Under the pieces are notes generated by a model, which was given only the letters and a program-made list of their open reading frames with translations, did not search any database and was not told the DNA's origin. Shown one piece after another: positions 28,824-62,578 of a stretch of 64,000 nt of DNA. Origin of the DNA: Parcubacteria group bacterium Greene0416_39. Lineage in GTDB: Bacteria; Patescibacteriota; Minisyncoccia; Minisyncoccales; UBA10102. Both the position numbers and the translations under genes were made by a program. The stretch lies in assembly GCA_007375675.1 (NCBI GenBank), contig VMEU01000001.1, positions 40,458 to 104,457 on the forward strand, given 5' to 3'. Position 1 is the first letter of the stretch; each line of letters starts with the position of its first letter.

Positions 28824-28827
28824 ATGG

Positions 28828-28900
28828 TGGGCGTGGATGGACTCGGACCATCGACCTCGGCCTTATAAGGACCTTGCTCTGACCACTGAGCTACACGCCC
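28828..28900 (-). tRNA. tRNA-Ile(TAT) candidate (AUA decoder); anticodon arm has a 27-43 A.G mismatch
   Basis: Acceptor GGGCGTG/CACGCCC; D-arm GCTC-AGTGGTCA-GAGC; anticodon stem AGGTC/GGCCG (4 pairs), loop CTTATAA; T-arm GATGG-TCCGAGT-CCATC; CCA encoded. Confidence 0.5.
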
Positions 28901-31900
28901 CCATTATACTTTTCTTGCCAATCAACCTTTCAAACTCTTCTCGCTCCAATGTTTCCTTTTCTATCAGGGCTTTGGCTATCTTGACAAGCGTTGGCCTTTT
29001 TTGTTTCAAAACGTTCTCCGCCTTTTTTCTCGCGACTTCTACAAGGCCAGATACCTCTTTATCTATTTCTTCGGCAAGTTTTTGGGAATAGTTCACATAT
29101 TCTCCAATGTGCGCGAACGGGTGCTCCTCCCTTTCTCCAAAAGTTACGGGTCCCAGCGATTCAGACATGCCGTATTCTTTCACGAGGCGCCGTGCAAGAT
29201 CTGAAGCCTGCTGAAGATCATTGCTCGCTCCCGTGGTCACATCTTTGAATACCAACTTCTCTGCGCAGTATCCTCCAAGAAACGTTGCGAGTTCATCCAA
29301 AAATTCTGCTCTGCTCTTTAAATGTTTTTCTTCTGAAGGGAGTTTCAAAGTGTATCCTCCAGCTCTTCCTCGGGATATGATGGAAACTTTGCGCACCGGG
29401 TCTGCGTGGGGGAGCGAAGAAGCAACCAAAGCATGGCCTGCTTCATGGTACGCGGTGATCTCTTTTTCTTTTTTGGAAAGAATGTGGCTTTTCCTTTCAG
29501 GGCCCAAGAGCACCTTGTCTATGGATTCCAGAAGTTCTTCTTGGGAGACTATGGTTTTGTTGCGCCTCGCAGTAAGAATTGCTGACTCGTTCATAAGGTT
29601 GGCAAGGTCTGCCCCTGAAAATCCTGGGGTTCTCTCTGCAATTTCCCGTAAAGAGGTTTTGGGAGCCAATGGTTTGCCCAAGGAATGAATCTTGAGGATT
29701 TCTTCCCTGTCATTCACGTCAGGAAGGTCAAGAACGATTCTTCGGTCAAAGCGTCCTGGCCTCAAAAGAGCAGAATCCAACACGTCAGGGCGATTGGTAT
29801 TGTGAAGTAGGATAGGGCTTTCTCCTCCAAAGAAAGCTTCATTCTCGCAGCCACAGAAATCGTAGACGTAACCGTCATAAGGCAACTTCCTGATCGACTT
29901 CACAATCGCTCGTTTCGTGCTTGCTTTTCCGATTTTTGGATCGAGGGGATTTTGTGTTTTCCCAAATCCAAGCCGATATGCCTTGGTTTCTTGGAGTGGC
30001 TTCCCATCCCTAATTTTTCTTCCCGCTTTCACCGTAAATTCACGAATATAGCTTTTGAATCCGTGCATTCGAGAAAGCCAGTTTAATCCAAGGATTAGAC
30101 GCTTGCTTACCGAAGTAAGCTCGAGGCGTCCTCGTGTATCGGTGTAACCGTCTCCTGCTGCATATCCTTTGAGAAATTCAGTGTAGTATTCCTTTGGAGC
30201 TTCAAAAAGGAACTGGGGCACCTGTTTATTTTTTGCGCCTTTCCCACAGTGAAACGCAAGGAAGCTTGCGACAGGCTTGCAGTGGTACACAATATTTATG
30301 GCGTTTTTGGTAATATGACGTTCCCGATCTGGTTCAAGGTGAAAGATGGTTTTCATCAGATATCTCACGTCTTCTATGTATTCCTTTTCCTTCTCATTGA
30401 AACAAAAATCGAGTTCTTTCCTGGCATAACCCTCGGCGGTATAGTATCCAAAAAGCCTCATCAATTCTGGGCTTACTTCCACTGTTTCTGGAAGTTGATC
30501 TTTATATTGGTAGTAATTCCTACTTAGCGCTCGCGGCACACAAATACCCTGTTGCCATTTTCCAATAGTTCTTTGAGAGAACCCCAGCATATTGCCAAGC
30601 TCTGTTTGCGACGTTTCTCCCTCATGAGTACGAGCAAATTGATACGCATACTCTACTGACTGAAAAGGCATAAAGAGTGGTTCCCATAGCTGGAGTTGGA
30701 GCTCGAGTTTCTGGCTAAACTTATGGCCCCGTATTTCTCTCCTGTTTTTATTGGTGCGATTTACTTTATATGGAAGATCTACAAGAATGTCCCCTGGTTT
30801 AATTTCACATACAGGTTTTGGAACCAGCCCTTGAGCATTCGTTCGTATAAATACAGAGTGATTCCCAGTAGTTCTGATAGTTCCTCCCATATATTCTACT
30901 TCGTAAATCTCCTGTACTTTGTGACGGAATACGCTCCGCACTTTCTTAAATGCGCTGTTCTGGAGATACGTCTTTTTTTGCGCAGAAAATCCTTTTCCAA
31001 TTTTCTTTTCAAACCCAAGCACCTCTAATCTTTGCGACGGTTTTTCTACTCCTTCTTCGCCCTCTTGATAGTAGGGGTCTATGACTTGATCGATAGGAAG
31101 AAGCTTATCCTCCCCATTTTCTCGAATTAGTACAGGAGTATCACCGGTAACGCTTGCACCCATCACTATGCGTTGATCGTCTCGCTCAAAGCCGTCCATT
31201 TCCACTAAGATTTGGTTTAAGGTTTGTTCTCGTTCCTCGTGTCCGCCCGTGAATCCAGAGCCCCTCGTGCGGCCAATGGCGTCTAATTCGTCAATAAAGA
31301 TAATGCTTCTCCCAGCCCTTTTTGCAGTAGAAAAGAGATCCCGAACTCTCGAGCTTCCCACACCCACGAACATTTCCACGAATTCAGAACCTGAAGCAGA
31401 AAAGAATGCGACTCCAGCTTCGTTGGCCACAGCTCTTGCCAACAGGGTTTTCCCTGTGCCGGGCGCCCCTACCAAAAGCACTCCTCTTGGGATGCGAGCT
31501 CCCATGTCTAGATACTTTTTTGGGTTCTTCAAAAAATCCACTACTTCCTGGAGCTCTTCTTTTGCTTCTTTGAGACCTGCAACGTCTTTGAACGTGACTT
31601 TTTCTTTTGTCTGGCCGTCTGCTCCAAATAACCTGGCGCGAGACTTTGTGAACTCAAACGCCTGCCCGAGTCCAGCTCTTGCCTGGCGGAACATCATCAA
31701 AAAGAAGAACACGAAAAAGAGCATGGGAAGAATCACAAACAGAAAAGGCGAAATCCAGGCCCCAATGCCGCCTTCCTTTCTCTGCTCAATTGTTACATTG
31801 TTTAATTGTTCTTTATCAACTCCTAAGTTGAGAAGCGTTTGGGAAAGAGAGGAATCAGACTCTTTGAGAGCAGCAACTTCAGAGCCGTCTTCCAAAGTTA

Positions 31901-32081
31901 CCTTGAGCGCAGTCCCCTCAAGAACAATGCTTTTGGTATTCCCCTTGTTGATGTCTTGCACAAGCTCGCTCAAGGAGATCTGCTTTTGAGCTTCAAACGG
32001 CCGTGCAAAAAGCGAAAACAGCGCCGAGAGCACCAGGAGCGCCACAAACGCAACAAGAAGGTTTTTAGAAAAGTTTTTCAT
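28863..32081 (-). CDS. ftsH: ATP-dependent zinc metalloprotease FtsH, interrupted by a 452-aa intein
   Basis: N-terminal TM; Walker [16 protein letters not shown]; Walker [10 protein letters not shown]; sensor-1 region split as IVMGA | intein | TNRPDVLD; protease HEAGHALVA. 3' end overlaps the tRNA at 28828-28900. Confidence 0.9.
29799..31154 (-). mobile_element. Intein in the FtsH AAA module (Ser1 ... Asn, +1 Thr) with degenerate LAGLIDADG-like endonuclease region
   Basis: [15 protein letters not shown] start; ...[10 protein letters not shown]|TNRPD end; [14 protein letters not shown] and [13 protein letters not shown] motifs; 1356 nt, in frame. Without it FtsH is ~620 aa. Confidence 0.8.
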
Positions 32082-32179: not shown

Positions 32180-33307
32180 TTAGTGCATCTTTACTTGGAT
32201 AGCCCTGCACCTTAGGAGTGCAAAGTTGTACCAGCGGCACTGGTTCTTTAGCGTTGAGGTACATATCCCTTCCCTGCATCTCTCTTGCCGAGAGGGTTCA
32301 AACCCGCCTTCCAGGCACATCTTCACGGTTTCCACGATCGTGTCCAGGGGTATCTTGGTGGCTGGGATATCAGGGCGAGAGCGTCCTCCATTAAGGATAT
32401 TGTTGGTCTCCTTGTGGAAGAACCATGTGGGATAATCTTTGAGCGCCCCCTCCTGCTCAATTTGCTTCCAGGGTATGTCGAGTTTGTTTCCCCGAGCCCA
32501 CTCTTCGCGAGATCTAAGGACGCGGACCACGTCTCGCATGTCAAGGCGTAGATGACTGGTAGGGAGGATCTGAATGTGACCGCTCGGATTCTTTACCACT
32601 ACCACTGCAGCGCCGAGGAAGCGCGCAAATGCGGGAGCTTTGGGGTCGTCCCCCTCTATCACCGTAATCCACTGCTGTTTGCCATTGAGTTGAAGCTCCA
32701 CCTGTCTCATGGGAAGGAGAGATGTGGCCGCGAACTGGTCCGCCTTTTTCAAATGTGCGTTTAGGGTCATCTCCGTATACTGGAGAACAGCATGCAGTCC
32801 CCAGCCTTGGAGCTGAAATTCCATGACTGTTACCGAGAGATCTAGCGCAAGGTTCGGTGGATTTTTGTCCGTGTGGAGGACTGCTCTTAAGATCTTCCTC
32901 CACCGGAACTCCTGGTCAAGCCCCAGGAACTTGGCAGCCAGGGTTGCGGCGCACTCGTTTTTCTGCGTCTGGTCGCCAGTGACAACATGTTCATCAACGA
33001 TCCTGTGCTTGTTGCCTTCGTCCCTAAATGCGGCACCAAGCCCAAGAAGAACGGTGTCCTCTCTTTGCGCGAGCTCCTCGACGTTGTCTTGTGCAGTGAG
33101 GCAGCGAAACTGCGCTGTGTTTACCCCAGGCAGCTTTTCTTCTCCATGTTGTTGAAGGAGAAGTACTGCCACCAACTCGTCCAGATGCGCTGGGCTTCCA
33201 TGAGTGACGATTTCTGTAATCATCAACCTCCCCCTTGTTGTAAACTCGAGGAGTAAGTCTTGTCCTCGGCTAGCCTTGCTTATATCATGTTCTGTAAGCT
33301 TTGTCAA
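32180..33307 (-). CDS. MYG1/UPF0160-family metal-dependent hydrolase (putative exonuclease)
   Basis: THGSPAHLDELVAVLLL matches the MYG1 N-terminal THxGxFHxDEALAxxLL signature; 375 aa. GC is visibly higher than in neighbouring genes. Confidence 0.55.
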   Translation of the reverse strand: MTKLTEHDISKASRGQDLLLEFTTRGRLMITEIVTHGSPAHLDELVAVLLLQQHGEEKLPGVNTAQFRCLTAQDNVEELAQREDTVLLGLGAAFRDEGNKHRIVDEHVVTGDQTQKNECAATLAAKFLGLDQEFRWRKILRAVLHTDKNPPNLALDLSVTVMEFQLQGWGLHAVLQYTEMTLNAHLKKADQFAATSLLPMRQVELQLNGKQQWITVIEGDDPKAPAFARFLGAAVVVVKNPSGHIQILPTSHLRLDMRDVVRVLRSREEWARGNKLDIPWKQIEQEGALKDYPTWFFHKETNNILNGGRSRPDIPATKIPLDTIVETVKMCLEGGFEPSRQERCREGICTSTLKNQCRWYNFALLRCRAIQVKMH

Positions 33308-33356
33308 TGTTTTTTATCGTTCAATACCTTGGAATCACTCCATGATATACTGAAAT

Positions 33357-34136
33357 ATGAAAATACTTGTTCTGTTACCATGTTTGTTTTTTCCTTTCTT
33401 GGCGTTTGCCCAGCCTATTCTCATCAATGAGATTGCTTGGATGGGGAGTTCAGTTGAGGGCGTTGATGCAAACCAGTGGTGGCGCTACGAATGGGTGGAG
33501 TTGTACAACAATGCAGATACTGTTGGAATGGTAGACGGTTGGATGTTGGAATTGTATCGCGACAAATTGGACTTTCGTATTCCCCTCAAAGGAGCAATTG
33601 AACCAAAAGGATATTTTTTGATTGGAGCTTCAGAGAAAATTAAGAATCTCAACCTCAACTACGCGAATCTTGCGGGAAAATTCGTGAACTCCGGACAAAA
33701 AATCGTTTTGAAAAACAGCGCAGGCGAAATTGTAGACGAGGTTGACCCCGTTAGAAGCGAGGCTTCTAACGGGGTTGATGCAACAAAAGGCTGGCCCGCA
33801 GGGGATAATGAAACTAAACGCACCATGGAGCGTGTAGCTGGGACTGTCCCAGCTACGTGGCAGACGAGCAGGGACTCGGGAGGAACGCCAAAGGCTCAAA
33901 ACAGCAGCGGAGCGGCGGCGAAGCTCATGGCGCAGAAGCTTAGCTTCCCTGGGAAGCTAAGCTTCAACAGCAAAGCCGTGGCTTTGAAGCCGAGCGAAAC
34001 AAAAAAAGACATTTCCATGTCTTCTGACGAAGAATCTCAAGACCTTTTCAATTCTACTGGTCTTGTTGCGTTGGTTCTTGCTCTAGGGTCGTCTGCTGCT
34101 GCGGTTCTGCTGCGGCGGCGCTTGTCGCGAGTCTAA
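33357..34136 (+). CDS. Secreted lamin-tail-domain (LTD) protein with C-terminal hydrophobic anchor
   Basis: Signal peptide; INEIAWMGS...EWVELYN...GWMLELY...GYFLIG is an LTD signature; C-terminal LVALVLALGSSAAAVLLRRRL. Confidence 0.7.
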   Translation: MKILVLLPCLFFPFLAFAQPILINEIAWMGSSVEGVDANQWWRYEWVELYNNADTVGMVDGWMLELYRDKLDFRIPLKGAIEPKGYFLIGASEKIKNLNLNYANLAGKFVNSGQKIVLKNSAGEIVDEVDPVRSEASNGVDATKGWPAGDNETKRTMERVAGTVPATWQTSRDSGGTPKAQNSSGAAAKLMAQKLSFPGKLSFNSKAVALKPSETKKDISMSSDEESQDLFNSTGLVALVLALGSSAAAVLLRRRLSRV

Positions 34137-35242: not shown

Positions 35243-35896
35243 ATGCAGATATTTTGGAAAGGCCAGGCGTGCTTTCAGATTCTCACATCCCGCGGCAAAG
35301 ACAGCCAGCTTTCAATTGTTGTTGATCCTTACGAGGAATCCATTGGGTTAAAACTTCCAAGCCTTCAGGCCGACATTCTTTTGGTTACGCACAATCATTT
35401 CGACCACAACAATGCAAAAGACGTGAAAGGATCCCCCTTTGTCATTTCAAATCCAGGAGAGTATGACGTGAAAGGCGTGTTCGTGCAAGGGATCTTTTCA
35501 TTTCATGACGATACCCAAGGCAAAGAAAGAGGCAGTAACACCATATACCGTATAGAAGTTGAGGGCATGAGGATTTGTCATTTGGGCGATTTGGGCCAAA
35601 AAGAGCTTACCCAAGAACAGCTCAACCAAATAGGTGATGTGGACATTTTGTTTGTTCCAGTAGGGGGCGTGTATACCATAGACGGCAAAGAAGCTGCGCG
35701 CATTGTAAGCCAGCTTGAGCCAAAGATTGTTATCCCCATGCACTATGCATTGCCAAAGCTCAAGGTGAAGCTTGAAGGCGTGGAAGAGTTTCTCAAACCC
35801 ATGGGAGCAAAAAATGCAGTGGCTGAACCCAAACTCCTAGTGAAAGAACGTGATCTTGTGAATGAAGAAAGGAGAGTGGTGGTCTTGACGCCATGA
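35243..35896 (+). CDS. MBL-fold metal-dependent hydrolase (UPF0173/YtkL-like)
   Basis: LLVTHNHFDHNN metallo-beta-lactamase motif; 217 aa. Confidence 0.75.
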   Translation: MQIFWKGQACFQILTSRGKDSQLSIVVDPYEESIGLKLPSLQADILLVTHNHFDHNNAKDVKGSPFVISNPGEYDVKGVFVQGIFSFHDDTQGKERGSNTIYRIEVEGMRICHLGDLGQKELTQEQLNQIGDVDILFVPVGGVYTIDGKEAARIVSQLEPKIVIPMHYALPKLKVKLEGVEEFLKPMGAKNAVAEPKLLVKERDLVNEERRVVVLTP

Positions 35897-38800
35897 TCAA
35901 AGAAAACAAACCGAGCGCCATAGGCAAGGTTGAGCCAAGAGAAATTGTGCAGGAGATGAAAACTGCGTATTTAGATTACGCAATGTCTGTTATTGTTGCA
36001 AGAGCTTTGCCTGACGTAAGAGATGGATTAAAACCAGTTCACCGGAGAATTCTGTACGCAATGTACGAAATGGGGTTGACCCACGGAGCGAAATTAAGAA
36101 AATCAGCTGGCGTGGTAGGAGAAGTGCTTGGAAAGTACCATCCTCACGGAGACATTTCCGTGTACGACGCTTTGGTTCGCATGGCCCAAGATTTTTCCAT
36201 GCGCTACCCCTTAATAGACGGCCAAGGAAATTTTGGTTGTTTCACAAAAGATACCGAAATCCAACTGACCGATGGGAGAGCCCTCTCTTTTGGACAACTA
36301 ATTGAGGAACAGAAAAAAGGGGAAAGGCATTGGACCTTCTCATTTAATCAAAAAGAAGAAAAAATTGAGATAGCGGAAATTAAGCGTCCCCGCCTGACGA
36401 GAGAAAACGCAGAATTAGTGGAGGTGGTGCTTGATAACGGAGCACAAATTCGATGTACCCCAGATCATCGATTTATGCTTCAAAACGGAACATACCAGGA
36501 AGCCCGTTATCTTTCTCAGGGGGATTTTTTGATGTCGATGCTGGAATATACAAAAAACAAAACATCCGCTTTTGAGGCGGAAGTTTTGGGAGTCGCAGAT
36601 AGTACCGGTGCTTCGGAGTTGTCGTCTATTCCTATACTAGCAAACCAAGCAGTTCTGTCAAGTGTGTCCACGGAGCCGTGGACGGCACGGGAATTGCACC
36701 CGTCGACTTCTGGACGACAACTCCGAAGCCGGGACTACCCGCCGCCCACGGCCCCTCTATTATACCTACGAAAAGTAGAATGTATCAAGGTGAACAATGT
36801 AAGATTCCTTGAAGAAAAGACAGATGTGTACGACATCACAGTAGATCCTTGGCATAACTTTGCACTTGCAGCAGGTATTTTTGTTCACAACTCAATTGAC
36901 GATGACCCTGCGGCGGCAATGCGTTATACGGAAAGCCGCATGTCTCGGGCAGGGGAAGAACTGCTCGAAGACATTGAGAAAAATACCGTTGACTTCATTG
37001 ATACATACGACGGAATGAGGCAAGAACCCAAGGTTCTTCCTTCTCCTTTGCCCCAACTTTTGTTGAACGGCACCTTGGGAATCGCGGTGGGAATGGCAAC
37101 CAACATTCCTCCGCATAACTTAGCAGAGGTTGCAGACGCAGTAGCCTTCCTTATTGAAAATCCCAAGGCAGACACCGAAGATTTATTTCAATTTATCAAG
37201 GGGCCGGATTTCCCGACTGGCGGAACCATTTTTAACAAACAAGAAATGATTGCGGGCTACTCACAGGGCAAAGGCCCTATTGTGGTGCGAGGCAAAGCAG
37301 AAGTGGTGGAGAATGACAAGAAGAATCAGATCATCATTAGCGAGATTCCTTTCCAGGTGACCAAGTCTACTCTTGTGGAACAGTTTGCAAACCTTGTGCA
37401 GGAAAAGAAAATTGAGGGAATTAGAGACATCCGCGACGAGTCAGACAAAGACGGCATGCGAATTGTGTTTGACCTTGCAAGAGAAGCCCAGCCCCAGAAA
37501 ATTTTAAACCGGCTCTACAAATTTTCAGACCTGCAAAAAACATTTCACTTAAACCTTCTTGCCTTGGTAGACGGCATTCAGCCCAAGGTTCTTTCTTTGG
37601 CTGAAATCCTTCTGCTTTTTCTTGAGCACAGAAGGAATGTGGTTTCAAGGAGAACCCAGTGGGAGTTAGACAGAGCCAAAGAGAGAGCGCATATCTTAGA
37701 AGGCCTTGTAAAATGTCTTGGCAGCATTGACGAAGTTATTAAAATTATCAGACGGTCAGATGACCGGGACGACGCCAAAAAGAACCTCATGGCGCGCTTT
37801 AAGCTTACTGAAATCCAGGCAAACGCAATCCTAGACACAAAGCTTAGCCAACTGGCAAAGCTTGAGCGAAAGAAAATAGAAGAAGAATTAGTTGCGCTGA
37901 AAGCAACAATCAAAGAACTAACCTTAATTCTTGCAAACCCCAAGGAAATTGACCGCATCATTGCAAAAGAACTTGAGGTCGCCAAGGCAGCCTATGGAGA
38001 CCAGAGGAGAACCAAAGTGGTGGTGCAGGGCCTTGGCGAAATTGCAGAAGAAGATTTAATCCCCCAGGAAGACACGGTCATCACCTTAACCCAGGGAGGG
38101 TACATTAAGCGTATTAATCCCGCCACCTACAAAATTCAAAAGAGAGGAGGAAAGGGCATTGTGGGCATGAAAACCATGGGGGAAGACATTGTAGAGCACT
38201 TCCTGTATGGCCAGACCCACGACTCTTTAATGGTGTTTACCGATTCAGGCAAGGTGTTTCAAATACCCGTGTATGAAGTCGCAGAGGGAACAAGGGTTTC
38301 TAAGGGCAGAGGTCTTCTCAACTTTATTGACCTTACTCCTCAAGACAAGGTATTGACCCTTTTTGCCATTGGCAAAGAAGACATTGTGGCTGGCAAAAAA
38401 TATCTGGCCATGATTACCAAAGACGGAATAATGAAAAAAACCCTTTTGGACGACTTCAAAAACGTGCGGCGTTCAGGACTTATTGCAGTAACCCTTAAAA
38501 AGGGAGATCGTCTGCAGGGAGCGCAAAAAACCACTGGCGAAGACGATATCATTATTGTGACAAAACACGGCAAATCCATTCGCTTCAAAGAATCGCAGGT
38601 GAGAGCAATGGGAAGGCAGGCCGCAGGAATCCACGCCATACGCCTCAAAAAAGGGGATGAGGTTATGGGGATGGACATTATCCCTGGTTTGCCGTCGCGA
38701 CTCTTTATACTTTCAGAAAATGGGTATGGGAAAAGCACTGACGTGAAAGAATACCGGATACAGAGCAGGGGAGGGTCTGGAATCAAAACCGCAAACGTTA

Positions 38801-38994
38801 CCTCAAAAACAGGCAATCTCGTGTTTGCCAAAGTTCTTGAGGGCCCAGAAGAAGACTTAATCGTGATTTCAAGAAAAGGCCAGGTAATACGAACTCCTGT
38901 TACGTCTATTCCTAAGATAAGCCGCTCCACGCAAGGCGTGCGTTTCATGAGGCTTGATGAGGGAGACAAGGTTGTGTCGGCCGCTTGCATGTAA
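35893..38994 (+). CDS. gyrA: DNA gyrase subunit A, interrupted by a 218-aa mini-intein
   Basis: RALPDVRDGLKPVHRRILYAM; GQGNFG | intein | SIDDDPAAAMRYTES; C-terminal beta-pinwheel repeats; 815 aa without the intein. Confidence 0.9.
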   Translation: MIKENKPSAIGKVEPREIVQEMKTAYLDYAMSVIVARALPDVRDGLKPVHRRILYAMYEMGLTHGAKLRKSAGVVGEVLGKYHPHGDISVYDALVRMAQDFSMRYPLIDGQGNFGCFTKDTEIQLTDGRALSFGQLIEEQKKGERHWTFSFNQKEEKIEIAEIKRPRLTRENAELVEVVLDNGAQIRCTPDHRFMLQNGTYQEARYLSQGDFLMSMLEYTKNKTSAFEAEVLGVADSTGASELSSIPILANQAVLSSVSTEPWTARELHPSTSGRQLRSRDYPPPTAPLLYLRKVECIKVNNVRFLEEKTDVYDITVDPWHNFALAAGIFVHNSIDDDPAAAMRYTESRMSRAGEELLEDIEKNTVDFIDTYDGMRQEPKVLPSPLPQLLLNGTLGIAVGMATNIPPHNLAEVADAVAFLIENPKADTEDLFQFIKGPDFPTGGTIFNKQEMIAGYSQGKGPIVVRGKAEVVENDKKNQIIISEIPFQVTKSTLVEQFANLVQEKKIEGIRDIRDESDKDGMRIVFDLAREAQPQKILNRLYKFSDLQKTFHLNLLALVDGIQPKVLSLAEILLLFLEHRRNVVSRRTQWELDRAKERAHILEGLVKCLGSIDEVIKIIRRSDDRDDAKKNLMARFKLTEIQANAILDTKLSQLAKLERKKIEEELVALKATIKELTLILANPKEIDRIIAKELEVAKAAYGDQRRTKVVVQGLGEIAEEDLIPQEDTVITLTQGGYIKRINPATYKIQKRGGKGIVGMKTMGEDIVEHFLYGQTHDSLMVFTDSGKVFQIPVYEVAEGTRVSKGRGLLNFIDLTPQDKVLTLFAIGKEDIVAGKKYLAMITKDGIMKKTLLDDFKNVRRSGLIAVTLKKGDRLQGAQKTTGEDDIIIVTKHGKSIRFKESQVRAMGRQAAGIHAIRLKKGDEVMGMDIIPGLPSRLFILSENGYGKSTDVKEYRIQSRGGSGIKTANVTSKTGNLVFAKVLEGPEEDLIVISRKGQVIRTPVTSIPKISRSTQGVRFMRLDEGDKVVSAACM
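36238..36891 (+). mobile_element. Mini-intein in GyrA (no endonuclease domain), inserted between GQGNFG and SIDDDP
   Basis: CFTKDTEIQLTDGR (block A) ... FALAAGIFVHN|S (blocks F/G); in frame (345 and 990 nt from the CDS start); low-complexity linker in the middle. Confidence 0.8.
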
Positions 38995-38995: not shown

Positions 38996-41900
38996 ATGAT
39001 AAAGAAAATGAGAGCCCACTCGTTATCTCTTCTTCTTGCAGTAATTCTTCTTTTTGTTGCGGGCGGTTCTGTCTTATCAGCGCCGCGCACAGATATTCCC
39101 GCACCCTCCAGCCCTTCTCCTCAAAACAACGGAAGCGCAACAATCCCTGTAACCTTGCAATGGAGCAAGGTAACATTTCCTTTTGGCCTTGCTGGCGGGT
39201 ATCTTTTGGAGGTGGTAGGCGGAGGCGTGAATCGGTCAGGAGTAAACAGCATATGGACTTCAGCAAATTCCTCTGTTTTGCCAGAACAGCTTGTGTCTTT
39301 GGCAGGGCAAACATACCAATGGCGAGTGCGCGCGTGCCTTGGAGCTATGCTTCCTACATCTGGAACAGAAGACAGCGTATGCGGCAATTGGGGCAGCGGC
39401 ATCGCTGGATTCTGGACTTTTACTACCGCGCTTTCAAAACCCATTCTCCTTTTGCCAAAAAATAATGAACTTGCGTTTCTCCAGCCAATAGCTCCCAGTT
39501 CCACGGTTGATTCTGTAAAACTTGAATGGCAAAAAGTGCCGGGATTTATAGATAGTTATAAGATTATTCTTTCAAATTCCCAATTCGCTCAACCTTTTGA
39601 GTTCAAAACCCAGCGTACGGCATCAGGCACAGGATCATTAGAACCCGCAACATCTTTCTGGATTCCCAAACAACTCGTCTTTGTGCATAGTGAACCCTAT
39701 TCCTGGAGAGTTGTTCCCATTCAGGGGGTAACCACCGGGCCCTCGTCTGATACGTGGAAGTTCATGATTTCGTTAGGAGAGGCAGAACCAGTGAAGCCAA
39801 AACCAGATACGCAGGCACCATATCCTTTAGTTCTTGAGTGGTCAAAGGTTTCTGGAGCCAGTAGGTATGCGTTTCAGGTCACAGATTCTAAGGGGGAGAC
39901 AATTCCCGCAGACACTCCCCAGTTGTCTTTTCCCTTTCCCGCGGGCGCAAGGAATGATTTCTTTCGTATTGGAGAAAATTATACCTGGCAGGTGACTGCG
40001 TGCCAGACTCTTTCTCTGTGTGGCGTTCCTGGCGGGCCTTGGCGGTTTACGTTAGGGCTTGCCTCTCCCACACTGGAGAATCCAAAAGAAGGGTCTACCA
40101 TTTCAAGCTCTTCTCCCACATTCAAATGGAGTAGGCCTCCGGCGCCACCCGGGGATCTTCGTTACTCCCTGGAAGTGGAAGGACCAAAAACCATTTCAGT
40201 AAACAAGTCTAGCGGCACAACACCAGTTACCTTTAATGTTTCTTCACTTGTTCCTGGTTCTTATATCTGGCGAGTGCGCGCGTGTAAAACTGACGGAAGC
40301 GCGTGCAGCAACTGGAGCGCGGACGCAACATTCAAGGTCCCCACCCCTGTTACAGAAATCGCTGGTCCTACAACTCCTACTTCAGGCGCCCCACCAACTT
40401 CACAAGAACCTTTTTCCCCTCTTAATGCTCCCTCTCTTATTTCTCCTGCGAACAACGCAAACGATGCCACAACCGCTTTGCCCCTCACGCTTACGTGGAA
40501 CACGGTAGATTTTGAAGGGCTTAAAGGAGGTTATGCCGTTGAGCTGTTGAAAGCAGGGGATAATAAACCATTAAAGTCTGAGTGGGTCAAGAGTGACAAA
40601 CATTCTTTAGATAACCTTTCTACCCCTCTTTTGAAAATAGGAACAACCTATAGATGGAGAGTTCAGGCGTGCTTGGGTGATTCCGCGCCTACTATTCCTC
40701 TTATCTGTAGTAACTGGGGTAGCGGTTCAGGATTTTGGGACTTCACTCCTACCCTCGTTAAACCCGTTCTTCGTTTCCCTGCAGACAAAAGTAATACTTT
40801 CCTGGAGAAAGATTCTTCAGGAACGAAGTCTGTTCATCTGGAGTGGAACGTAGTTGCAGGGGCAGAAAGTTACGTCGTTTCTCTACGTAATCTTAGTGAA
40901 TCAAATGTGAAGGATTTTCCTGCTGGCACAAACGATGTTTGGATTAAACCCGAACTCCTCACGGTTAATAATCAATATACTTGGAAGGTCAAGGCTTTAT
41001 CTGGCACCAATAAAAGTCCTGATTCTGCAACTCGGAGGTTTACTGTTCTTAACGAGCTTCCTGCGTCTGAAATTACTGCCCCTACTGAAAATCAGCAAAT
41101 AACGGCTCCCGCATCGTTTACTTTCAAATGGAAGAGACCGTCAACTCTTTCCAATGATCCTCTGAAGTATAAATGGGCTATTTTGGAAGATTCAGGTTCC
41201 CCGAGTTTTTCTGGTGAGGTTCCAGCAACCGCAAGTTCCACAATGGAATTGCCTAACCAGCAATTGACGAAATTGGGCCAGTACACGTTTTATGTACAGG
41301 CGCTTGGTGCAGATGGCAGTGGAGCTGGTCAGTTAGGCAAGGTAACATTTTCCGTGGTTGAGCCAATCTCTGGTCAGCTTCTCATTTTCGACCCGGAGGC
41401 AGTTGATTACACAGTCCAAGGGGAAAGCCATACATTTACGCTAAAGGCGTTATCGAAAGTAGAAGCAAGAGCATTTCCACTAAGGGGGAATATAACCACG
41501 TTTATTCAAGGGGAATTCGTTCCTTTTCCCTCAAACGGCAAAAGAACCCCAGAGGGTTTTAGCTGCGTAAGCGGGTGTACATACAGTTTTAATAGGCAAG
41601 ACGAACAGCACTCTGTTGTTATTGATTTTATTCTTCCCGGACAGACAGGGGATGTTCTTGGGTTTGCATCAACCCAACACGGAGGTCGTGTAGACCTTTT
41701 GGGGCAAGGCAACATTCTCTCAGCTTCAATAAAGCGTTTGGGAGCGTCTTGCGATCTCACAGGCAAGTCGGATCGGTGTGCCTCAGGTCTTGAATGCAAA
41801 GCAGAAGGTGGGGGAGCAGCGATCTGTAAAGCCTCGGCGACTGCAACAGCTCCAACAGCGCCGGGGGTAACTGCTCCTTCTTCAACAATTTTTTCTGTTG

Positions 41901-42421
41901 CTGACAAAGCCCTGAACGTTGCTTTTACTGCCCTGCTCATTGCTGCTTCGCTATTCGTGTTGCTTGCGGCGTTTCAGTTTGTCACTGGAGGAGACAATCC
42001 AGAGATGATTGCTGAAGCCAGGGGTAAACTTGCATGGGCTGCAGTAGGAATTGGCGTTGCATTGGTTGCCAAAGGAGCGGCAAAGATTTTGCAGGAGATT
42101 CTTTTGCCGTCTGAAGGCGGAGGTGCTCCTAAAGACCTCTGTCCTGGAATAACAAAATCTGCTGACGCTATTCAGAATCCTCTAAAAACACTCTGTTTCA
42201 GCGGGATTCTTGACAGCATTCTTAATGTTATTTTTACACTTTCTTTAATTGTGGTTCCTTTTGTGGTAATATATGCTGGATTCCTTTATGTGACAGGCGG
42301 AAGCAATCCAGCGCAGATTACCAAGGCCCGTGATACCTTGATCTGGACAGCAATTGGCTTTGGAGTTATACTGATTGCAAAGGGTTTGCCGTTTATTCTA
42401 AAGGACATCCTTGGGATTTAA
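38996..42421 (+). CDS. Giant secreted repeat protein (about seven Cys-containing ~100-aa repeats) ending in two tandem VirB2/TrbC-like double-TM modules
   Basis: Signal peptide MIKKMRAHSLSLLLAVILLFVAGGSVLSA. Repeats with Y.W(R/K)V.AC...C.NW...F pattern. C-terminus holds two copies of the module seen in the 42473-42820 protein: AAFQFVTGGDNPEMIAEARGKLAWAAVGIGVALVAKG and AGFLYVTGGSNPAQITKARDTLIWTAIGFGVILIAKG. Confidence 0.7.
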   Translation: MIKKMRAHSLSLLLAVILLFVAGGSVLSAPRTDIPAPSSPSPQNNGSATIPVTLQWSKVTFPFGLAGGYLLEVVGGGVNRSGVNSIWTSANSSVLPEQLVSLAGQTYQWRVRACLGAMLPTSGTEDSVCGNWGSGIAGFWTFTTALSKPILLLPKNNELAFLQPIAPSSTVDSVKLEWQKVPGFIDSYKIILSNSQFAQPFEFKTQRTASGTGSLEPATSFWIPKQLVFVHSEPYSWRVVPIQGVTTGPSSDTWKFMISLGEAEPVKPKPDTQAPYPLVLEWSKVSGASRYAFQVTDSKGETIPADTPQLSFPFPAGARNDFFRIGENYTWQVTACQTLSLCGVPGGPWRFTLGLASPTLENPKEGSTISSSSPTFKWSRPPAPPGDLRYSLEVEGPKTISVNKSSGTTPVTFNVSSLVPGSYIWRVRACKTDGSACSNWSADATFKVPTPVTEIAGPTTPTSGAPPTSQEPFSPLNAPSLISPANNANDATTALPLTLTWNTVDFEGLKGGYAVELLKAGDNKPLKSEWVKSDKHSLDNLSTPLLKIGTTYRWRVQACLGDSAPTIPLICSNWGSGSGFWDFTPTLVKPVLRFPADKSNTFLEKDSSGTKSVHLEWNVVAGAESYVVSLRNLSESNVKDFPAGTNDVWIKPELLTVNNQYTWKVKALSGTNKSPDSATRRFTVLNELPASEITAPTENQQITAPASFTFKWKRPSTLSNDPLKYKWAILEDSGSPSFSGEVPATASSTMELPNQQLTKLGQYTFYVQALGADGSGAGQLGKVTFSVVEPISGQLLIFDPEAVDYTVQGESHTFTLKALSKVEARAFPLRGNITTFIQGEFVPFPSNGKRTPEGFSCVSGCTYSFNRQDEQHSVVIDFILPGQTGDVLGFASTQHGGRVDLLGQGNILSASIKRLGASCDLTGKSDRCASGLECKAEGGGAAICKASATATAPTAPGVTAPSSTIFSVADKALNVAFTALLIAASLFVLLAAFQFVTGGDNPEMIAEARGKLAWAAVGIGVALVAKGAAKILQEILLPSEGGGAPKDLCPGITKSADAIQNPLKTLCFSGILDSILNVIFTLSLIVVPFVVIYAGFLYVTGGSNPAQITKARDTLIWTAIGFGVILIAKGLPFILKDILGI

Positions 42422-42472
42422 AAAGCAAAGGTCGCAGTTTTTAAGAAAGAATTTTCTATATAACAAATCACC

Positions 42473-42820
42473 ATGAAAAAAAGCTTACTAATTGGACTTC
42501 TGGCTTCTGTAATGTTTCTGTCTTTTGCCAGCTTGGTATTCGCACTTCCGACCGACATCGAGACGCTTCCTGAGGTGACTAAAGCAACTCTCTTTGGGGA
42601 CACAGGGCTCATTAATAAAGCGGCAAATCTCATATTTACTGGATTGCTCATCGTTTCGACGTTCTTTATTTTGATAGCAGCGTTTCAGTTTGTCACTGGA
42701 GGAGGAAACGCAGAAGCTCTTGAAAAGGCGCGAGCCATGCTTATCTGGGCAGTAGTAGGAATTGCCGTTGCATTTCTTGCAAAGGGGTTGCCAACGATAA
42801 TCTTTGGCGTATTGAAATAA
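42473..42820 (+). CDS. Small secreted VirB2/TrbC-like (conjugative-pilin-like) protein: signal peptide + two hydrophobic helices
   Basis: 115 aa; signal MKKSLLIGLLASVMFLSFASLVFA; then LIVSTFFILIAAFQFVTGGGNAEALEKARAMLIWAVVGIAVAFLAKGLP. Paralogous to the two C-terminal modules of the upstream protein. Confidence 0.55.
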   Translation: MKKSLLIGLLASVMFLSFASLVFALPTDIETLPEVTKATLFGDTGLINKAANLIFTGLLIVSTFFILIAAFQFVTGGGNAEALEKARAMLIWAVVGIAVAFLAKGLPTIIFGVLK

Positions 42821-42870
42821 TAATAGAAATGAGAATAGAATAGAGTGGAAAATCAAAAGATGATTTCCGG

Positions 42871-42906
42871 CCCGCCAGGTACAGGACTGTACCTGGCGGG
42901 TTTTGT
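42871..42906 (+). terminator. Intrinsic terminator
   Basis: CCCGCCAGGTACAG-GA-CTGTACCTGGCGGG followed by TTTTGTTT. Confidence 0.7.
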
Positions 42907-42970
42907 TTCTTGCCATTCATTGTACTTGAGCTCCAAATGAGGTAGACTTTTCTTGCGAGCCTCCGTGTTT

Positions 42971-43052
42971 GTCGGAGTGGCGGAACTGGAAGACGCGCTG
43001 GCCTTAGAAGCCAGTGGGGCAACCCGTGAGAGTTCGACTCTCTCCTTCGACA
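42971..43052 (+). tRNA. tRNA-Leu(TAG), class II
   Basis: Acceptor GTCGGAG/CTTCGAC (G-U); anticodon stem CTGGC/GCCAG, loop CTTAGAA; variable hairpin; T-arm GAGAG-TTCGACT-CTCTC. Confidence 0.7.
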
Positions 43053-43054
43053 CA

Positions 43055-44269
43055 ATGAAAAACTTTTGCAAAGACTGCGGATATTCAAACTTCTATCATC
43101 TCACTACGTGGCTCCAAGATTTGACGAGCCGTTTCCTGTGGCTTCCAAAACTGCCAAAGAAAATTGAAGATTTTTTTGACGGTTTTCTCGCAACAGTTTT
43201 TACCGTTTTGAGGATAGCCAAATTCAGGGCTGATTTTACGGCACAAGACGTTCAATTGCGGTCTTTTTGTTTTTTGGAAGAGATGAAAAAACGAGGAGTA
43301 ACGTGTTATGCGTTGAAAACAATTTTTGGCTACACCAATCACTTCAAGATGCGTATTGGGGAAAAAGTGTTTCATTTTGAAATGCTGCCAACCGCAGGGT
43401 TCAAAAGCAAATATACAAATCGTGTTGTTGACGACAAACAGCTAACCAAAGAATTTTGCAAAGAAGGTAATTTCCCTATTAGCCAAGGCCAATCATTTTG
43501 GTTTTGGCAAAAACAAAAAGCAGTTCAGTTTGCCCATCAGATTGGCTTCCCCGTTGTTGTGAAACCCAGAGGTGGATCTGTAAGCCGGCACGTTACCACA
43601 AATATAGAAGGCGTTGAGCAGTTGGAGTGCGCAATACGGAAAGCAACAGCGTATTCGCCCGCATTCATTGTCGAAAAATTTATTCCAAACACCTTTGTGT
43701 ACAGGGCAACAGTTGTAGATTTTGATTTTGTAGTATGCGTACAGCAGCTTCCGGCAAATGTTGTGGGCAATGGTATCTTAACAGTACGCGAACTGATTGA
43801 TAAGAAAAATAACAGTCCCAACAGAGGCCCGCTTCGCTCTCGCGAAGGCGAGGCGAGCAAGCCCCATCAAAAAGAGCATACGCTCTATACGATAGTTGAA
43901 AACGCAGTGACCGAAACATTATTGAGCAAAAAGGGATATACTTTTTTCAGTGTGCCGAAAGAAAGTGAGGTGGTGTTTTTACAATACGATCCATTTCTTA
44001 AGTTAGGGGGCGATTTGGTTGAAGTGACAAACACAGTGCACCCCGACAACCTTACACTCGTAAAGCAAGCCGCCAGATACTTTGATATTAGGGTTGTGGG
44101 AATAGACTTTTTGGCGCAAGATATTTCCCGATCTTGGAAAGAGCAGCAATGCGCCATTCTTGAGTTAAACAGCGCTCCGTGCATTGAGTTGCACCATTTT
44201 CCGTCTGCGGGAGAACCCACAAATCCAGCCAAAGCATTGGCTGACATGTTTTTTAAATATTATACATGA
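43055..44269 (+). CDS. ATP-grasp family ligase (cyanophycin-synthetase/RimK-like fold)
   Basis: Start MKNFCKDCGYSNFYHL immediately after the tRNA; FPVVVKPRGGSVSRHV ATP-grasp motif; 405 aa. Confidence 0.6.
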   Translation: MKNFCKDCGYSNFYHLTTWLQDLTSRFLWLPKLPKKIEDFFDGFLATVFTVLRIAKFRADFTAQDVQLRSFCFLEEMKKRGVTCYALKTIFGYTNHFKMRIGEKVFHFEMLPTAGFKSKYTNRVVDDKQLTKEFCKEGNFPISQGQSFWFWQKQKAVQFAHQIGFPVVVKPRGGSVSRHVTTNIEGVEQLECAIRKATAYSPAFIVEKFIPNTFVYRATVVDFDFVVCVQQLPANVVGNGILTVRELIDKKNNSPNRGPLRSREGEASKPHQKEHTLYTIVENAVTETLLSKKGYTFFSVPKESEVVFLQYDPFLKLGGDLVEVTNTVHPDNLTLVKQAARYFDIRVVGIDFLAQDISRSWKEQQCAILELNSAPCIELHHFPSAGEPTNPAKALADMFFKYYT

Positions 44270-44290
44270 AGAATGTAAAATTCTAACGGG

Positions 44291-44812
44291 ATGAATATCC
44301 TTTTATTGTTCCTTTATGGCTCCTTTAGTGTTTTTACGCTGCTTTTCCTTATTATAATGATAGAGTCTTTACTGCGAGGACACGACTTGCCAACAAATAG
44401 CAAGACAACTGAAAGTATTTGTAAAATTATATCAGAGTATAAACGTGAAGCCAGTAATTTTTACGATTTAGGGTGCGCCAGAGGCGCGCTCGCAATTCGC
44501 ATAAAAAGAAGGTTTCCCAACCTTTCTGTTTATGCGTTCGACAATAGCGGTATACGTATTGTATGTGCTAAGCTGAGAGCCCTATTGGTAAGGGCAGACA
44601 TACGCTTTGCGCAAGAAAACATTTTTGACGTGGATTTAGGCAACTCAGATATTGTCTACACGTATCTTTGGTATGACACAATGCCTTTGCTTGAGAAAAA
44701 ATTGCAAAAGGAGTTAAAAAAAGGCGCCCTGGTAATTGCGAACACCTCGCATTTTCCCAATTGGGAGCCCATAAAACAAATCGAAACTTTATTTATCTAC
44801 CGTAAAACTTAA
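44291..44812 (+). CDS. Class I SAM-dependent methyltransferase with N-terminal TM helix
   Basis: Motif I FYDLGCARGALAI; 173 aa. Confidence 0.6.
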   Translation: MNILLLFLYGSFSVFTLLFLIIMIESLLRGHDLPTNSKTTESICKIISEYKREASNFYDLGCARGALAIRIKRRFPNLSVYAFDNSGIRIVCAKLRALLVRADIRFAQENIFDVDLGNSDIVYTYLWYDTMPLLEKKLQKELKKGALVIANTSHFPNWEPIKQIETLFIYRKT

Positions 44813-51901: not shown

Positions 51902-52906
51902 ATGGCTGAAATGGTAAATTCTAAAAGGGCAAAGTTCCCTAGAGGGCTACAAAGAAGGTTCATTCAGAAAGTTCTCATAAACCTTTCTTTTGAGAAAGTC
52001 GCAGGTCTTTGTGGAGTTTCTCAGCGTACCATAAGAGATTGGCGCCGCGAAAAGTTTTTAATGGATTTTAGTGCCGTCAAGGTATTATGCAACAGAGCAA
52101 AGCTGCCATTCCCGCAACATATCAAGCTCAAGGATCGTTATTGGTATACTTCAAAAGGAGCCAAGTATGGCTGGAGTTTGGTGCTCAAAAAATATGGGAG
52201 GATTCCTTTAGATGAAGAGTATCGTAAAGAGAAATGGTATGAATGGTGGGAACGGGAGGGAAGGTATAAAAGGCATCCTATCATAAACGTTTCCAAACCA
52301 ATCCGAAAACCCGCTTTTTCCAAGGAGCTTGCCGAATTTGTAGGTATTGTGTTAGGTGATGGTGGCATAAGTAAAAGGCAGATTACGGTATCTTTACACA
52401 GTATCGATGACAAAGAATATTCACATTATGTTTCTGCATTAATCAAAAAGCTTTTCCTTGTTCCTGTTTCAATTCGTCCAGATAAAAACGCTAAAGTTGT
52501 AGATCTTGTTATTTCTCGTACGGAGTTGATACGTTTCTGTACCCAGACATTAGGCTTACGAATCGGCAACAAAGTAAAACAGCAAGTAGATGTTCCTCAT
52601 TGGATTAAACACAATAAGAGCTATATTCTTGCCTGCACCAGGGGACTTGTTGATACCGATGGTTCCGTATATCTTCACAGATACAAGGTAAATGGGAAGT
52701 GGTATACGTATTCAAAACTTTCGTTTTCTAATCGTTCCATGCCACTTCTTCAGTTTGTGCTTTGTACCTTTAAAACGCTTGGCATGAATCCTCGTTTAAC
52801 CAAGTATAACGAGGCCGTACGTTTAGAAAGTAAAAACGACATGAAATCATATTTTGGTTTAATAGGAACTCATAACCCGAAATATTTGAAGAAATACAGG
52901 AATTAG
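51902..52906 (+). CDS. Free-standing LAGLIDADG homing endonuclease (two motifs)
   Basis: FVGIVLGDGGISKRQ and ACTRGLVDTDGSVYLH LAGLIDADG motifs; 334 aa; divergent from the nested tRNA locus 70 nt away. Confidence 0.75.
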   Translation: MAEMVNSKRAKFPRGLQRRFIQKVLINLSFEKVAGLCGVSQRTIRDWRREKFLMDFSAVKVLCNRAKLPFPQHIKLKDRYWYTSKGAKYGWSLVLKKYGRIPLDEEYRKEKWYEWWEREGRYKRHPIINVSKPIRKPAFSKELAEFVGIVLGDGGISKRQITVSLHSIDDKEYSHYVSALIKKLFLVPVSIRPDKNAKVVDLVISRTELIRFCTQTLGLRIGNKVKQQVDVPHWIKHNKSYILACTRGLVDTDGSVYLHRYKVNGKWYTYSKLSFSNRSMPLLQFVLCTFKTLGMNPRLTKYNEAVRLESKNDMKSYFGLIGTHNPKYLKKYRN

Positions 52907-54922: not shown

Positions 54923-55031
54923 AATTGAAAGTTTATGCACTTAGAAGCCGAGCTCCTAATTAAGGAGCTCGGCTTCTTAAGTTTGTTATGGTATGTAAAT
55001 TTCTAATGGGATGAGGTATGATATACTATAC

Positions 55032-56087
55032 ATGAAATTCATCCCATTTCGGTTCGTTCCAAAAAGTTTCCTGGGAGTAGACATTGGCACATCTGCAATA
55101 AAAATTGTAGAGCTTCAGAGTTGGGGTTCTCGCAAGAGCTTGAAAAACTACGGAGAGCTCCAATCATCTTCTCTCTATGACAAACCCTTTCGATCCCTTG
55201 AAAAGAATACGCTCGTGCTTTCTTCAAAAGATATAGCGAGAGCGATAAAAGGCATTCTGTTGGAATCCTCCAGCGAGACTAAACGGGCAGTATTTTCAAT
55301 CCCCGATTTTTCAAGCTTTTTCACCCATTTCTCGCTTCCTCCTATGACCAAAGAAGAACTTGGGGAAGCGGTGAAGTTTGAAGCACGCAAGCACATTCCT
55401 TTGCCCTTGTCTGAAGTCACCATTGACTGGCAAATAGCGCAGGGCCGTGTTGACAGCAAAACGCCATTTCAAATTCTTTTGGTTGCAGTTCCAAACGAGG
55501 TTATCAATCAGTACCAGGAGATAGCTTCTTTTGCGGGGCTCCAGCTTATTGCCTTGGAGGCTGAAGTATTCGGGCTCGTTCGCTCGTGCTTGGCGCCAAC
55601 GAGAAGCCCGGTCGTGCTCTTAGATATTGGAGCGCAGAGCACCACGGTAAACGTTATTGTGAACAACGTTCTCAAAATATCCCACAGCACTGATATTGCA
55701 GGGAACAACCTTACCGAGAGAATCAGCCAGTCTTTGTCTCTTGACAAAAAGAGCGCGCAAGAGCAAAAACACGCAAAAGGCATGTTGCCGCAAGACCTTG
55801 GCGTGATTCTTTCTCCGCTTATTGATATGATAGGGGCAGAGGTTGAAAAGATCTCCCAGGAGTTTTTCCAAATTGAAGGAAAAGAAGTAGAACGGGTGGT
55901 ACTGGCAGGGGGATCCGCGCTGCTCAAGGGTTTGAGAGAATACTTTGAAACAAATCTCAAAAAGCCAGTTGACATCGCAGATCCATTTGGCAGAATCTTT
56001 TATCCCCCCATTTTGGAGCCCACAATTAAAGAACTTGGAGTTTCATACGCCGTGGCCCTAGGCATGGCCCTCCGAGGATTAGAATAA
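55032..56087 (+). CDS. pilM: Type IV pilus assembly protein PilM, paralog 2
   Basis: FLGVDIGTSAIKIVELQ...; PilM-like throughout. Confidence 0.8.
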   Translation: MKFIPFRFVPKSFLGVDIGTSAIKIVELQSWGSRKSLKNYGELQSSSLYDKPFRSLEKNTLVLSSKDIARAIKGILLESSSETKRAVFSIPDFSSFFTHFSLPPMTKEELGEAVKFEARKHIPLPLSEVTIDWQIAQGRVDSKTPFQILLVAVPNEVINQYQEIASFAGLQLIALEAEVFGLVRSCLAPTRSPVVLLDIGAQSTTVNVIVNNVLKISHSTDIAGNNLTERISQSLSLDKKSAQEQKHAKGMLPQDLGVILSPLIDMIGAEVEKISQEFFQIEGKEVERVVLAGGSALLKGLREYFETNLKKPVDIADPFGRIFYPPILEPTIKELGVSYAVALGMALRGLE

Positions 56088-56172
56088 TGCAAATCTACGA
56101 ATGACTTCGAATGCCGCAAATAAATACTATTCGTACATTCGCATATAATTTGTAGATTCGCATTATACTATT
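56085..56172. repeat. 85-nt quasi-palindromic intergenic element, copy 3, inverted relative to copies 1, 2 and 4
   Basis: Matches the reverse complement of copy 2 over its whole length: CGAATGCCGCAAATA core on the left, TACATTCGCA on the right. Confidence 0.7.
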
Positions 56173-57194: not shown

Positions 57195-57223
57195 GCTCAA
57201 AACGAGGTATGATACACTAAGCT

Positions 57224-59621: not shown

Positions 59622-59625
59622 TTCT

Positions 59626-61983: not shown

Positions 61984-62045
61984 AAGTTTTTCCACAGGCT
62001 TGCCTTGTTGACAGGTAGTCATTGGTCTATACTATACTTATGTAT

Positions 62046-62531: not shown

Positions 62532-62578
62532 TCCGAAAGGTCGATGAATGCGAAAGGTTAGTGATACTCTACACGATT

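Follow-up and report, generated by a model that had tools for sequence, protein, structure and literature searches.

A PF18895 pilin module joined to a candidate adhesin in a gyrA-linked gene array of Paceibacteria

Why would a very large secreted protein built of adhesin-like repeats end in two modules that resemble conjugative pilins, and why would the next gene encode a single such module on its own? The question is raised by a locus of an ultrasmall Parcubacteria group bacterium, lying within a stretch of 64,000 nucleotides (64 kb, hereafter the window), where a gene for an 1141-aa protein with an adhesin-like ectodomain and two pilin modules (38996..42421, + strand) follows gyrA and is itself followed by a gene for a 115-aa stand-alone pilin (42473..42820, +). 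We favor, with a probability of roughly 0.55, the explanation that the 1141-aa protein attaches the cell to a host or surface as an adhesin built into an assembly of VirB2-like pilins, and that the locus is one version of a gyrA-linked array of PF18895 genes.

All three modules belong to the Pfam family PF18895 (T4SS_pilin, 'Type IV secretion system pilin'; T4SS, type IV secretion system). The 1141-aa protein scores 52 bits over two stretches (E 7.3e-14) and the 115-aa protein 27.8 bits, against a curated gathering threshold of 26.6 bits. A family profile built from the three window modules and nine relatives matched module 1 (aa 955-1035, AAFQFVTGGDNP...ARGKLAWAAVGIG; 41858..42100, +) at E 1.3e-31, module 2 (aa 1061-1141, AGFLYVTGGSNP...ARDTLIWTAIGFG, with an NPL motif and a C-terminal ILGI; 42176..42418, +) at E 4.5e-29 and the 115-aa protein at E 3.8e-39, and it detected no further copy of the module in the 64-kb window. 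The linker between modules 1 and 2 (aa 1036-1060; 42101..42175, +), predicted from sequence and topology to be extracytoplasmic, holds Cys1049, for which Cys1067 in module 2 is a possible partner. The 115-aa protein consists of a signal peptide (aa 1-24) followed by a helix alpha1 and a helical hairpin (aa ~39-115). AlphaFold2 (AF2) gave it a signal helix and two hairpin helices, at aa 46-76 and 80-114, with a predicted local distance difference test score (pLDDT) of 75, and placed helices of the 1141-aa protein at aa 968-997, 1002-1035, 1068-1100 and 1105-1140. A preliminary description of this DNA, made from the sequence alone, had proposed these two open reading frames (ORFs) with their signal peptides, two tandem C-terminal modules and a stand-alone copy; coordinates, hydrophobic N-termini and both profiles agree with it. 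Its assignment of the modules to a pilin family stands as regards a T4SS pilin and fails as regards DUF4134, which is absent from the Pfam matches of both proteins at E<=1 and from the 25 families most frequently matched by 58 aligned relatives.

We also checked both proteins for features of other membrane and surface proteins. A lipobox, a class III pilin signal and a C-terminal LPXTG are absent from both (LPTSG occurs internally at aa 119 of the 1141-aa protein, the C-terminus of which reads ...KDILGI), and neither shows a Pfam N_methyl match or a G-F-T-L-I-E-like motif of type IV pilins. On the basis of such Pfam and signal checks, a holin, a lipoprotein, a sortase substrate and a type IV pilin were rejected as candidates.

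Related loci place the two genes in a conserved setting. The same gene order is kept across 14 species genomes of GTDB and a number of metagenome contigs: an S1 protein gene (reverse), a metallo-beta-lactamase (MBL)-fold hydrolase gene and gyrA (both forward), two to six PF18895 genes and, after an interval, genes for Hsp20, PrsW, a class I aminoacyl-tRNA synthetase, TsaD and RecG (all reverse). Clustering of the module cores separated three classes, type A, type B and an intermediate one, with T-G-G, A-R, W and G as invariant positions of the module. Type A carries the signature AP..AG..F.TA/GGDP..AR..L.WT..GFG.IL.SKGL..ILG-COOH, preceded by an invariant NPL ahead of helix alpha1 and often by a Cys-rich knot, and it is the first pilin gene wherever gyrA immediately precedes the array, except in one lineage (loci L003/L020). 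Type B, with the signature AAFQFVTGGGDP..ARQKLIWAAVGIG, fills the later genes of the array, mostly as bare pilins of ~115 aa, and in four loci (L008, L011, L013, L019) the second pilin gene belongs to the intermediate class. In the window, module 2 is of type A and groups with those modules of other genomes that occupy the first position and bear ectodomains. Type B includes both module 1 and the 115-aa protein; module 1 falls among the stand-alone pilins and has 51% identity to the 115-aa protein, which shares 62% identity over the module core with the pilin at the equivalent position in L007. The array is probably a vertically inherited, gyrA-linked set of VirB2-like PF18895 genes in Paceibacteria.

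What is exchanged on this conserved base is the ectodomain. Type A orthologues share with the window protein the module alone, at 40-49% identity, and their ectodomains are unalignable except in close relatives. The N-terminal extensions of type A give proteins of 124 to 1059 aa, with ectodomains of roughly 50 to 1000 residues in which Pfam recognizes Big_13, PKD, K319L-like PKD, HYDIN/VesB-like Ig, Big_3, TIG and fn3 domains. A close homologue (P0028) keeps the same B-A pair at 71% identity, yet it bears two repeats and a TIG domain, which strongly suggests that the ectodomain changes fast on a stable base. Types A and B are joined covalently in the window protein, P0007 and P0028. Some type B modules (P0012, P0013) carry a LamG domain at the C-terminus, and fusions at either end, N-terminal ectodomains as well as C-terminal LamG, fit a topology with both termini outward. 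The fusion of a pilin-like module to a large extracellular repeat domain, already suspected in the preliminary description, is thus a recurrent feature, since first-position orthologues bear other Ig-like ectodomains on the same module. A gene-calling read-through origin of the multi-module proteins was rejected: there are neither internal signal peptides nor start-like segments in the chains, and the 1141-aa ORF of the window is open throughout under code 11.

Two other gene arrangements were seen among the relatives. In one lineage (L003, L004, L020; 1760-2101 and 10001-15787), PF18895 genes are intermixed with genes for the type IV pilus, in the orders pilM-N-O followed by a type A pilin, and gyrA followed by a pilin-LamG gene and then pilB, a response regulator, pilT and pilC. 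In L028 (10001-11014), the pilin-LamG fusion P0012 stands directly after rpoB-rpoC-ftsK-recA, another housekeeping context.

At the window locus itself, the stop codon of gyrA (35893..38994, +; Pfam DNA_topoisoIV, Intein_splicing and DNA_gyraseA_C), the conserved upstream neighbour, is separated from the ATG of the 1141-aa ORF by 1 nt. An intrinsic terminator, placed at 42869-42902 (+) and delimited as a feature at 42869..42912, with a 15-bp stem containing 9 G-C pairs and followed by a T run, marks the end of the gyrA-pilin transcription unit, and a tRNA-Leu (UAG) found by ARAGORN (42971..43053, +) forms the downstream boundary. The gyrA and pilin genes probably share an operon. Within its 3' end, the large gene contains a promoter-like site (42344-42372, +) that matches the consensus at 10/12 positions and precedes the small pilin gene by ~100 nt. 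Going by this consensus match alone, the bare pilin could be expressed separately and at a higher level. The 1141-aa product has a counterpart of 100% identity, annotated as hypothetical, in Parcubacteria group bacterium Greene1014_47, a metagenome-assembled genome (MAG) of the CPR (candidate phyla radiation)/Patescibacteria, class Paceibacteria, with 508,855 bp and 596 coding sequences (Table S1, PMC12102498).

The ectodomain that precedes the two modules begins with a Sec-type signal peptide (aa 1-29; 38996..39082, +), recognized by a hydrophobic segment at aa 4-32. Seven FN3/Ig-like repeats of ~95-115 aa follow, R1-R4 at aa 33-146, 147-261, 262-354 and 355-449 (together 39092..40342, +) and R5-R7 at aa 475-586, 587-685 and 686-788 (40418..41359, +). 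They are separated by a Pro/Thr-rich linker with pLDDT <50 (aa 450-474; 40343..40417, +) and followed by a domain without a Pfam match (aa 789-915) and a 4-Cys knot (aa 916-945), both modelled at pLDDT <35 (41360..41830, +). Pairwise identity among the seven repeats is 15-45%, with R5 and R1 at 45% and R6 and R2 at 32%, and the common pattern is P..P...(L/F)xW..V...Y...YxWxVxA. The preliminary description was right about some seven Ig/FN3-like repeats of ~100 aa and wrong in giving each of them a Cys pair and a W.V.A motif: the former is present in 4/7 (R1, R3, R4, R5) and the latter in 5/7. Pfam matched fn3 (E 1.2e-12; 48 bits, with the cutoff at 25) and, on R4, Ig_Rha78A_N (E 2.1e-9). Across aa 33-788, AF2 predicted beta structure throughout, with a beta-sandwich fold for R1-R4 and pLDDT mostly 60-88, and Foldseek retrieved multi-FN3/Ig chains at E 1e-19 to 1e-13, among them gp130, contactin, fibronectin FN3 7-10 and the grappling-hook protein GhpA of Aureispira. 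Cys-rich segments resembling aa 916-945 also precede the pilin module in P0002, P0003 and loci L005, L007 and L012. Given this domain type, the FN3 rod is probably a host or surface adhesin.

How far does the family reach, and how is it related to classical VirB2/TrbC pilins? Searched against 1.84 billion representative proteins, the family profile found 29,820 relatives at E<=1e-3, overwhelmingly small, stand-alone proteins with a signal peptide, and the modules did not fall into an unrelated family; all 58 aligned relatives match PF18895. We classified 166 sequences, namely the best 150 matches together with earlier homologues. Lone pilins of <=165 aa make up 62/166, and 64/166 have two to eight hairpins per polypeptide with short linkers and no internal signal peptides, a share that is not representative because the ranking favours multi-module proteins, although the multi-hairpin architecture itself is real. 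With the 1141-aa protein as query, a homologue search returned at least 6 matches, and with module 2 alone it returned 1. Single chains of 4-8 PF18895 hairpins, with up to ~16 transmembrane helices, were seen in P0026 (7 hairpins), P0027 (8 hairpins), P0029, P0038 and P0094, the last with an additional 375-aa Cys-rich C-terminal domain; we found no description of such 'poly-pilins' in the literature.

The link of the window modules to classical TrbC/VirB2 appears to be indirect. PF04956 (TrbC) matched 10/58 close relatives (best E 8e-6), and the window proteins gave no match to it at E<=1. Module 2 matched NCBIfam NF045849 (Mbov_0395, a pilin-like family of a Mycoplasma integrative and conjugative element, ICE) at E 4.8e-8 over 67/80 profile positions, at 32.6 bits, below the cutoff of 40. 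The Mbov_0395 family likewise comes from a wall-less or monoderm organism; it differs in being small and encoded within a mobile element. With classical VirB2/TrbC/TraA, the window proteins share a signal peptide, a short amphipathic helix and two hydrophobic helices connected by a short turn. In contrast, the genuine VirB2 genes taken for comparison adjoin virB3/virB4, and the window pilin genes do not. VirB2 pilins are not known to carry large fused domains.

From these elements we propose the following path. Both proteins, which carry signal peptides, would be exported by Sec. As hydropathy and models predict, the hairpins would be inserted into the cytoplasmic membrane so that their two ends face outward and the GG(D/N)P...AR turn faces inward, which would leave both the N-terminal rod and the inter-module linker outside. 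Type A and type B hairpins would then pack side by side in one lipid-embedded VirB2-like assembly; we infer this co-assembly because A and B constantly co-occur, because the B-A fusion in the window lineage acts as a Rosetta stone and because bare copies are abundant. The seven-repeat FN3 rod, estimated at ~25-30 nm on the basis of 3.5-4 nm per FN3 domain, would project through the wall and bind a host cell or surface, and the rapidly exchanged ectodomain would set specificity. Type A would thereby serve as a conserved socket for swappable Ig-like, PKD, TIG or FN3 ectodomains, with type B providing mostly bare subunits. Any filament would be a presumed form of this assembly.

Several results weigh against the proposed adhesin-pilin assembly. 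Among 32 window ORFs scanned with Pfam, which include all those of at least 500 aa, there was no VirB4, VirB6 or VirD4, in agreement with the preliminary description; besides the pilin locus, the scans turned up only housekeeping genes and the two clusters of type IV pilus genes. Where genes of the related loci carry Pfam annotation, there are likewise no T4SS genes within 10 kb. Alignment by hhalign with seven annotated plasmid VirB2/TrbC proteins gave a weak 4.7-18% probability; alpha1 and the first transmembrane helix came out in register, which is suggestive but no proof. A Foldseek comparison of the PDB with the hairpin model of the 115-aa protein returned generic helical hairpins only (E >0.7) and no conjugative pilin, a search that is uninformative because the fold is so simple, and a profile search of PDB sequences yielded no meaningful match. 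The whole-protein AF2 model has low confidence over aa 789-986 and the hairpins, with an alignment depth of 8 sequences, so the packing of the two hairpins was left out of our conclusions. Polymerisation of PF18895 modules and the A-B contact are both presumed from sequence patterns.

What machinery, if any, would build such an assembly? Construction by a VirB4 T4SS encoded elsewhere, giving a short pilus, and a T4SS-independent, membrane-proximal structure stand at roughly even odds in our assessment. A canonical T4SS pilus, the T4SS-dependent form of the favored explanation, is a tentative option: type B would be the major VirB2-like pilin and the 1141-aa protein a minor or tip pilin with its own adhesin, both taken from the membrane pool and polymerised by a distant VirB4 machine. 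The name and use of PF18895 as a T4SS pilin speak for it, as do the TrbC matches among the relatives and the weak match to the ICE pilin-like family. VirB2-like pilins (PF18895 and PF04956) occur in 1,948 Patescibacteria assemblies and lie near virB4 in 1,135 of them, and 441 arrays of 2-11 divergent pilin genes have been reported in the phylum (PMC12102498, Quinonero-Coronel et al. 2025). In Southlakia epibionticum, a pilin array within the T4SS cluster is essential (PMC10633639, Wang et al. 2023). VirB4 is also listed as present in GCA_007376645.1, taken here as the window genome (Table S1, PMC12102498), and the preliminary description's call to look for VirB4 elsewhere in the genome has a positive answer in that listing. 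However, the array adjoins T4SS genes in none of ~18 loci examined and apparently shares an operon with gyrA. Such arrays, expanded to 3-6 genes with large fusions, also occur in three Wildermuthbacteria assemblies (L013, L014, L015) for which VirB4 is listed as absent (PMC12102498). Furthermore, chains of up to 8 tandem hairpins are hard to square with extraction from the membrane one subunit at a time.

The other form of the favored explanation, equally tentative, is that the hairpins stay in the membrane as a hetero-oligomeric ring or raft, a T4SS-independent platform that holds surface adhesins. Housekeeping linkage and the lack of T4SS neighbours are consistent with such a platform, and so are the poly-hairpin chains of 2-8 modules without internal signal peptides, which by analogy resemble fused c-ring subunits. 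It would also accommodate the retention of arrays in a lineage largely without VirB4: among 15 Wildermuthbacteria rows read in the published listing, 13 have 'No' for VirB4, and neighbouring Paceibacteria groups mostly have 'Yes' (PMC12102498). On the other side, this absence rests on draft MAGs and the hidden Markov model (HMM) thresholds of one paper, and it is a lead and not a proof because a single HMM protocol was applied to such drafts. There is also no precedent for such a structure, and VirB4 is listed for the window genome. As an observation in its own right, the gyrA-linked arrays of L013, L014 and L015 are not only kept but expanded despite the VirB4-negative listing. Arrays in lineages reported without VirB4, together with chains of up to eight fused hairpins, suggest that the VirB2 fold may also serve outside the T4SS. 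The boldest form of this idea, that VirB2-like hairpins of Paceibacteria form a T4SS-independent surface or membrane structure encoded in a gyrA housekeeping operon, with type A as a universal socket for rapidly exchanged host-recognition adhesins, is one that we regard as possible yet doubtful.

A plain membrane anchor, in which the hairpins only tether the surface protein and the 115-aa neighbour is unrelated in role, fares much worse. C-terminal hydrophobic segments would suffice for tethering. Yet one helix would be enough for that purpose, and instead a specific 80-aa module is kept at 40-49% identity while ectodomains are replaced; bare copies invariably accompany the module and predominate in the family. 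Conservation of both the 80-aa module and its bare partners therefore makes a mere anchor unlikely.

A polyprotein precursor is quite improbable. Here the chain would be cut, e.g. by signal peptidase after the in-to-out helix, to free pilins and a soluble ectodomain. Each second helix is indeed oriented like a signal peptide and followed by small residues (AKGAA-K), and classical TrbC/VirB2 proteins are processed. However, no conserved A-x-A site is evident between the modules of tandem proteins, and the junction of ectodomain and pilin lies outside any signal-peptidase context because no hydrophobic helix precedes module 1. An accessory of the type IV pilus machinery is the least probable of all: the type A gene after pilM-N-O and the pilin-LamG gene between gyrA and pilB, pilT and pilC would fit it, but they occur in one lineage only (L003, L004, L020), the clusters of the window are at least 12 kb away from the pilin genes, and the proteins have Sec signal peptides and no class III signals.

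How new is the adhesin-pilin arrangement? The PF18895 family and its arrays in Patescibacteria are known (PMC12102498, PMC10633639). The preliminary description had met no account of the arrangement of pilin module and repeat domain. In the literature we found no description of a covalent adhesin-pilin fusion, a gyrA-linked array of two paralogues, a tandem B-A chain or retention in VirB4-poor lineages, and these four features are apparently new. The published arrays are alike in Pfam family, in the size and topology of the 115-aa protein, in their tandem divergent paralogues and in phylum. They differ in that the window arrays stand beside gyrA among housekeeping genes and not in a T4SS cluster, have two fixed paralogue types, the first of which bears large swappable ectodomains, and can hold two modules per chain. 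A novel CPR pilus described in a 2026 preprint (PamA/PamB, donor-strand exchange) was set aside as a different system, found in other classes and without involvement of these modules.

Two further comparisons help to place the fusion. VirB5, TraN and PrgB resemble the window adhesin in their presumed role in target-cell contact for a T4SS-related apparatus; those are separate proteins, and the window adhesin is covalently part of a pilin-like subunit. In modular type IV pilins, such as PilB/PilC of Streptococcus sanguinis, a functional domain is grafted onto a pilin module. They share with the window protein a plan in which a conserved module for polymerisation or anchoring is extended by an adhesive domain and plain pilins are encoded next to it. 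Their module is unrelated, with a single N-terminal helix and a class III signal in contrast to the two-helix hairpin and Sec signal found here. PrgB-like adhesins were not found in Patescibacteria by an earlier study (PMC12102498).

Patescibacteria are thought to live attached to hosts, and their recognition determinants are largely unknown beyond a few cultivated Saccharibacteria. With its type A socket, hypervariable Ig-like ectodomains, bare partner pilins and an apparently constitutive gyrA operon, the locus is a concrete and widely conserved candidate, and if the proposed adhesin-pilin assembly is true, ectodomain identity could predict the host range of uncultivated Paceibacteria. It also bears on a question raised in recent T4SS reviews, namely whether a monoderm T4SS makes a VirB2-type pilus, which is treated there as a possibility and not as a fact (PMC12857230). 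The T4SS-independent alternative, if true, would mean a new class of cell-surface organelle derived from the conjugative-pilin fold and persisting in lineages that lost VirB4.

The surroundings of the locus offer some observations of their own. Two separate type IV pilus clusters are located at 5329-14322 and 55011-63617, containing PilB/PilC/pilin/PilM-N-O and PilM/PilB/PilT/PilC, respectively; the pilin genes lie ~24.7 kb from the upstream and 12.2 kb from the downstream cluster. With gyrA on one side and the terminator and tRNA-Leu on the other, the locus is thus placed outside both, as the preliminary description had it. Between the pilin array and Hsp20, 42971-44812 contains the tRNA-Leu, an ATP-grasp-like gene and a methyltransferase gene. 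Other genomes have different inserts in this interval (PAP2, secreted proteins, ABC genes), and its content therefore seems to vary. On the upstream side of the S1/MBL/gyrA block, 32180-34136 encodes a 375-aa protein without a Pfam match together with a lamin-tail-domain (LTD) protein, a pair that is kept at the same position in L007, L009 and L010-L013.

Three housekeeping genes within the 64 kb bear inteins: gyrA (35893-38994), ribonucleotide reductase (19727-23377) and FtsH (28863-32081). The intein-bearing gyrA product has 1033 aa compared with ~830 aa in relatives. Ribonucleotide reductase contains Intein_splicing and LAGLIDADG, and FtsH, with an intein and LAGLIDADG, reaches 1072 aa compared with 613 aa in L005. 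A free-standing LAGLIDADG ORF is present at 51902-52906. Additionally, ARAGORN identified a tRNA-Ile with the anticodon UAU at 28825-28900 (-), beside a tRNA-Val, which represents an uncommon way of reading AUA.

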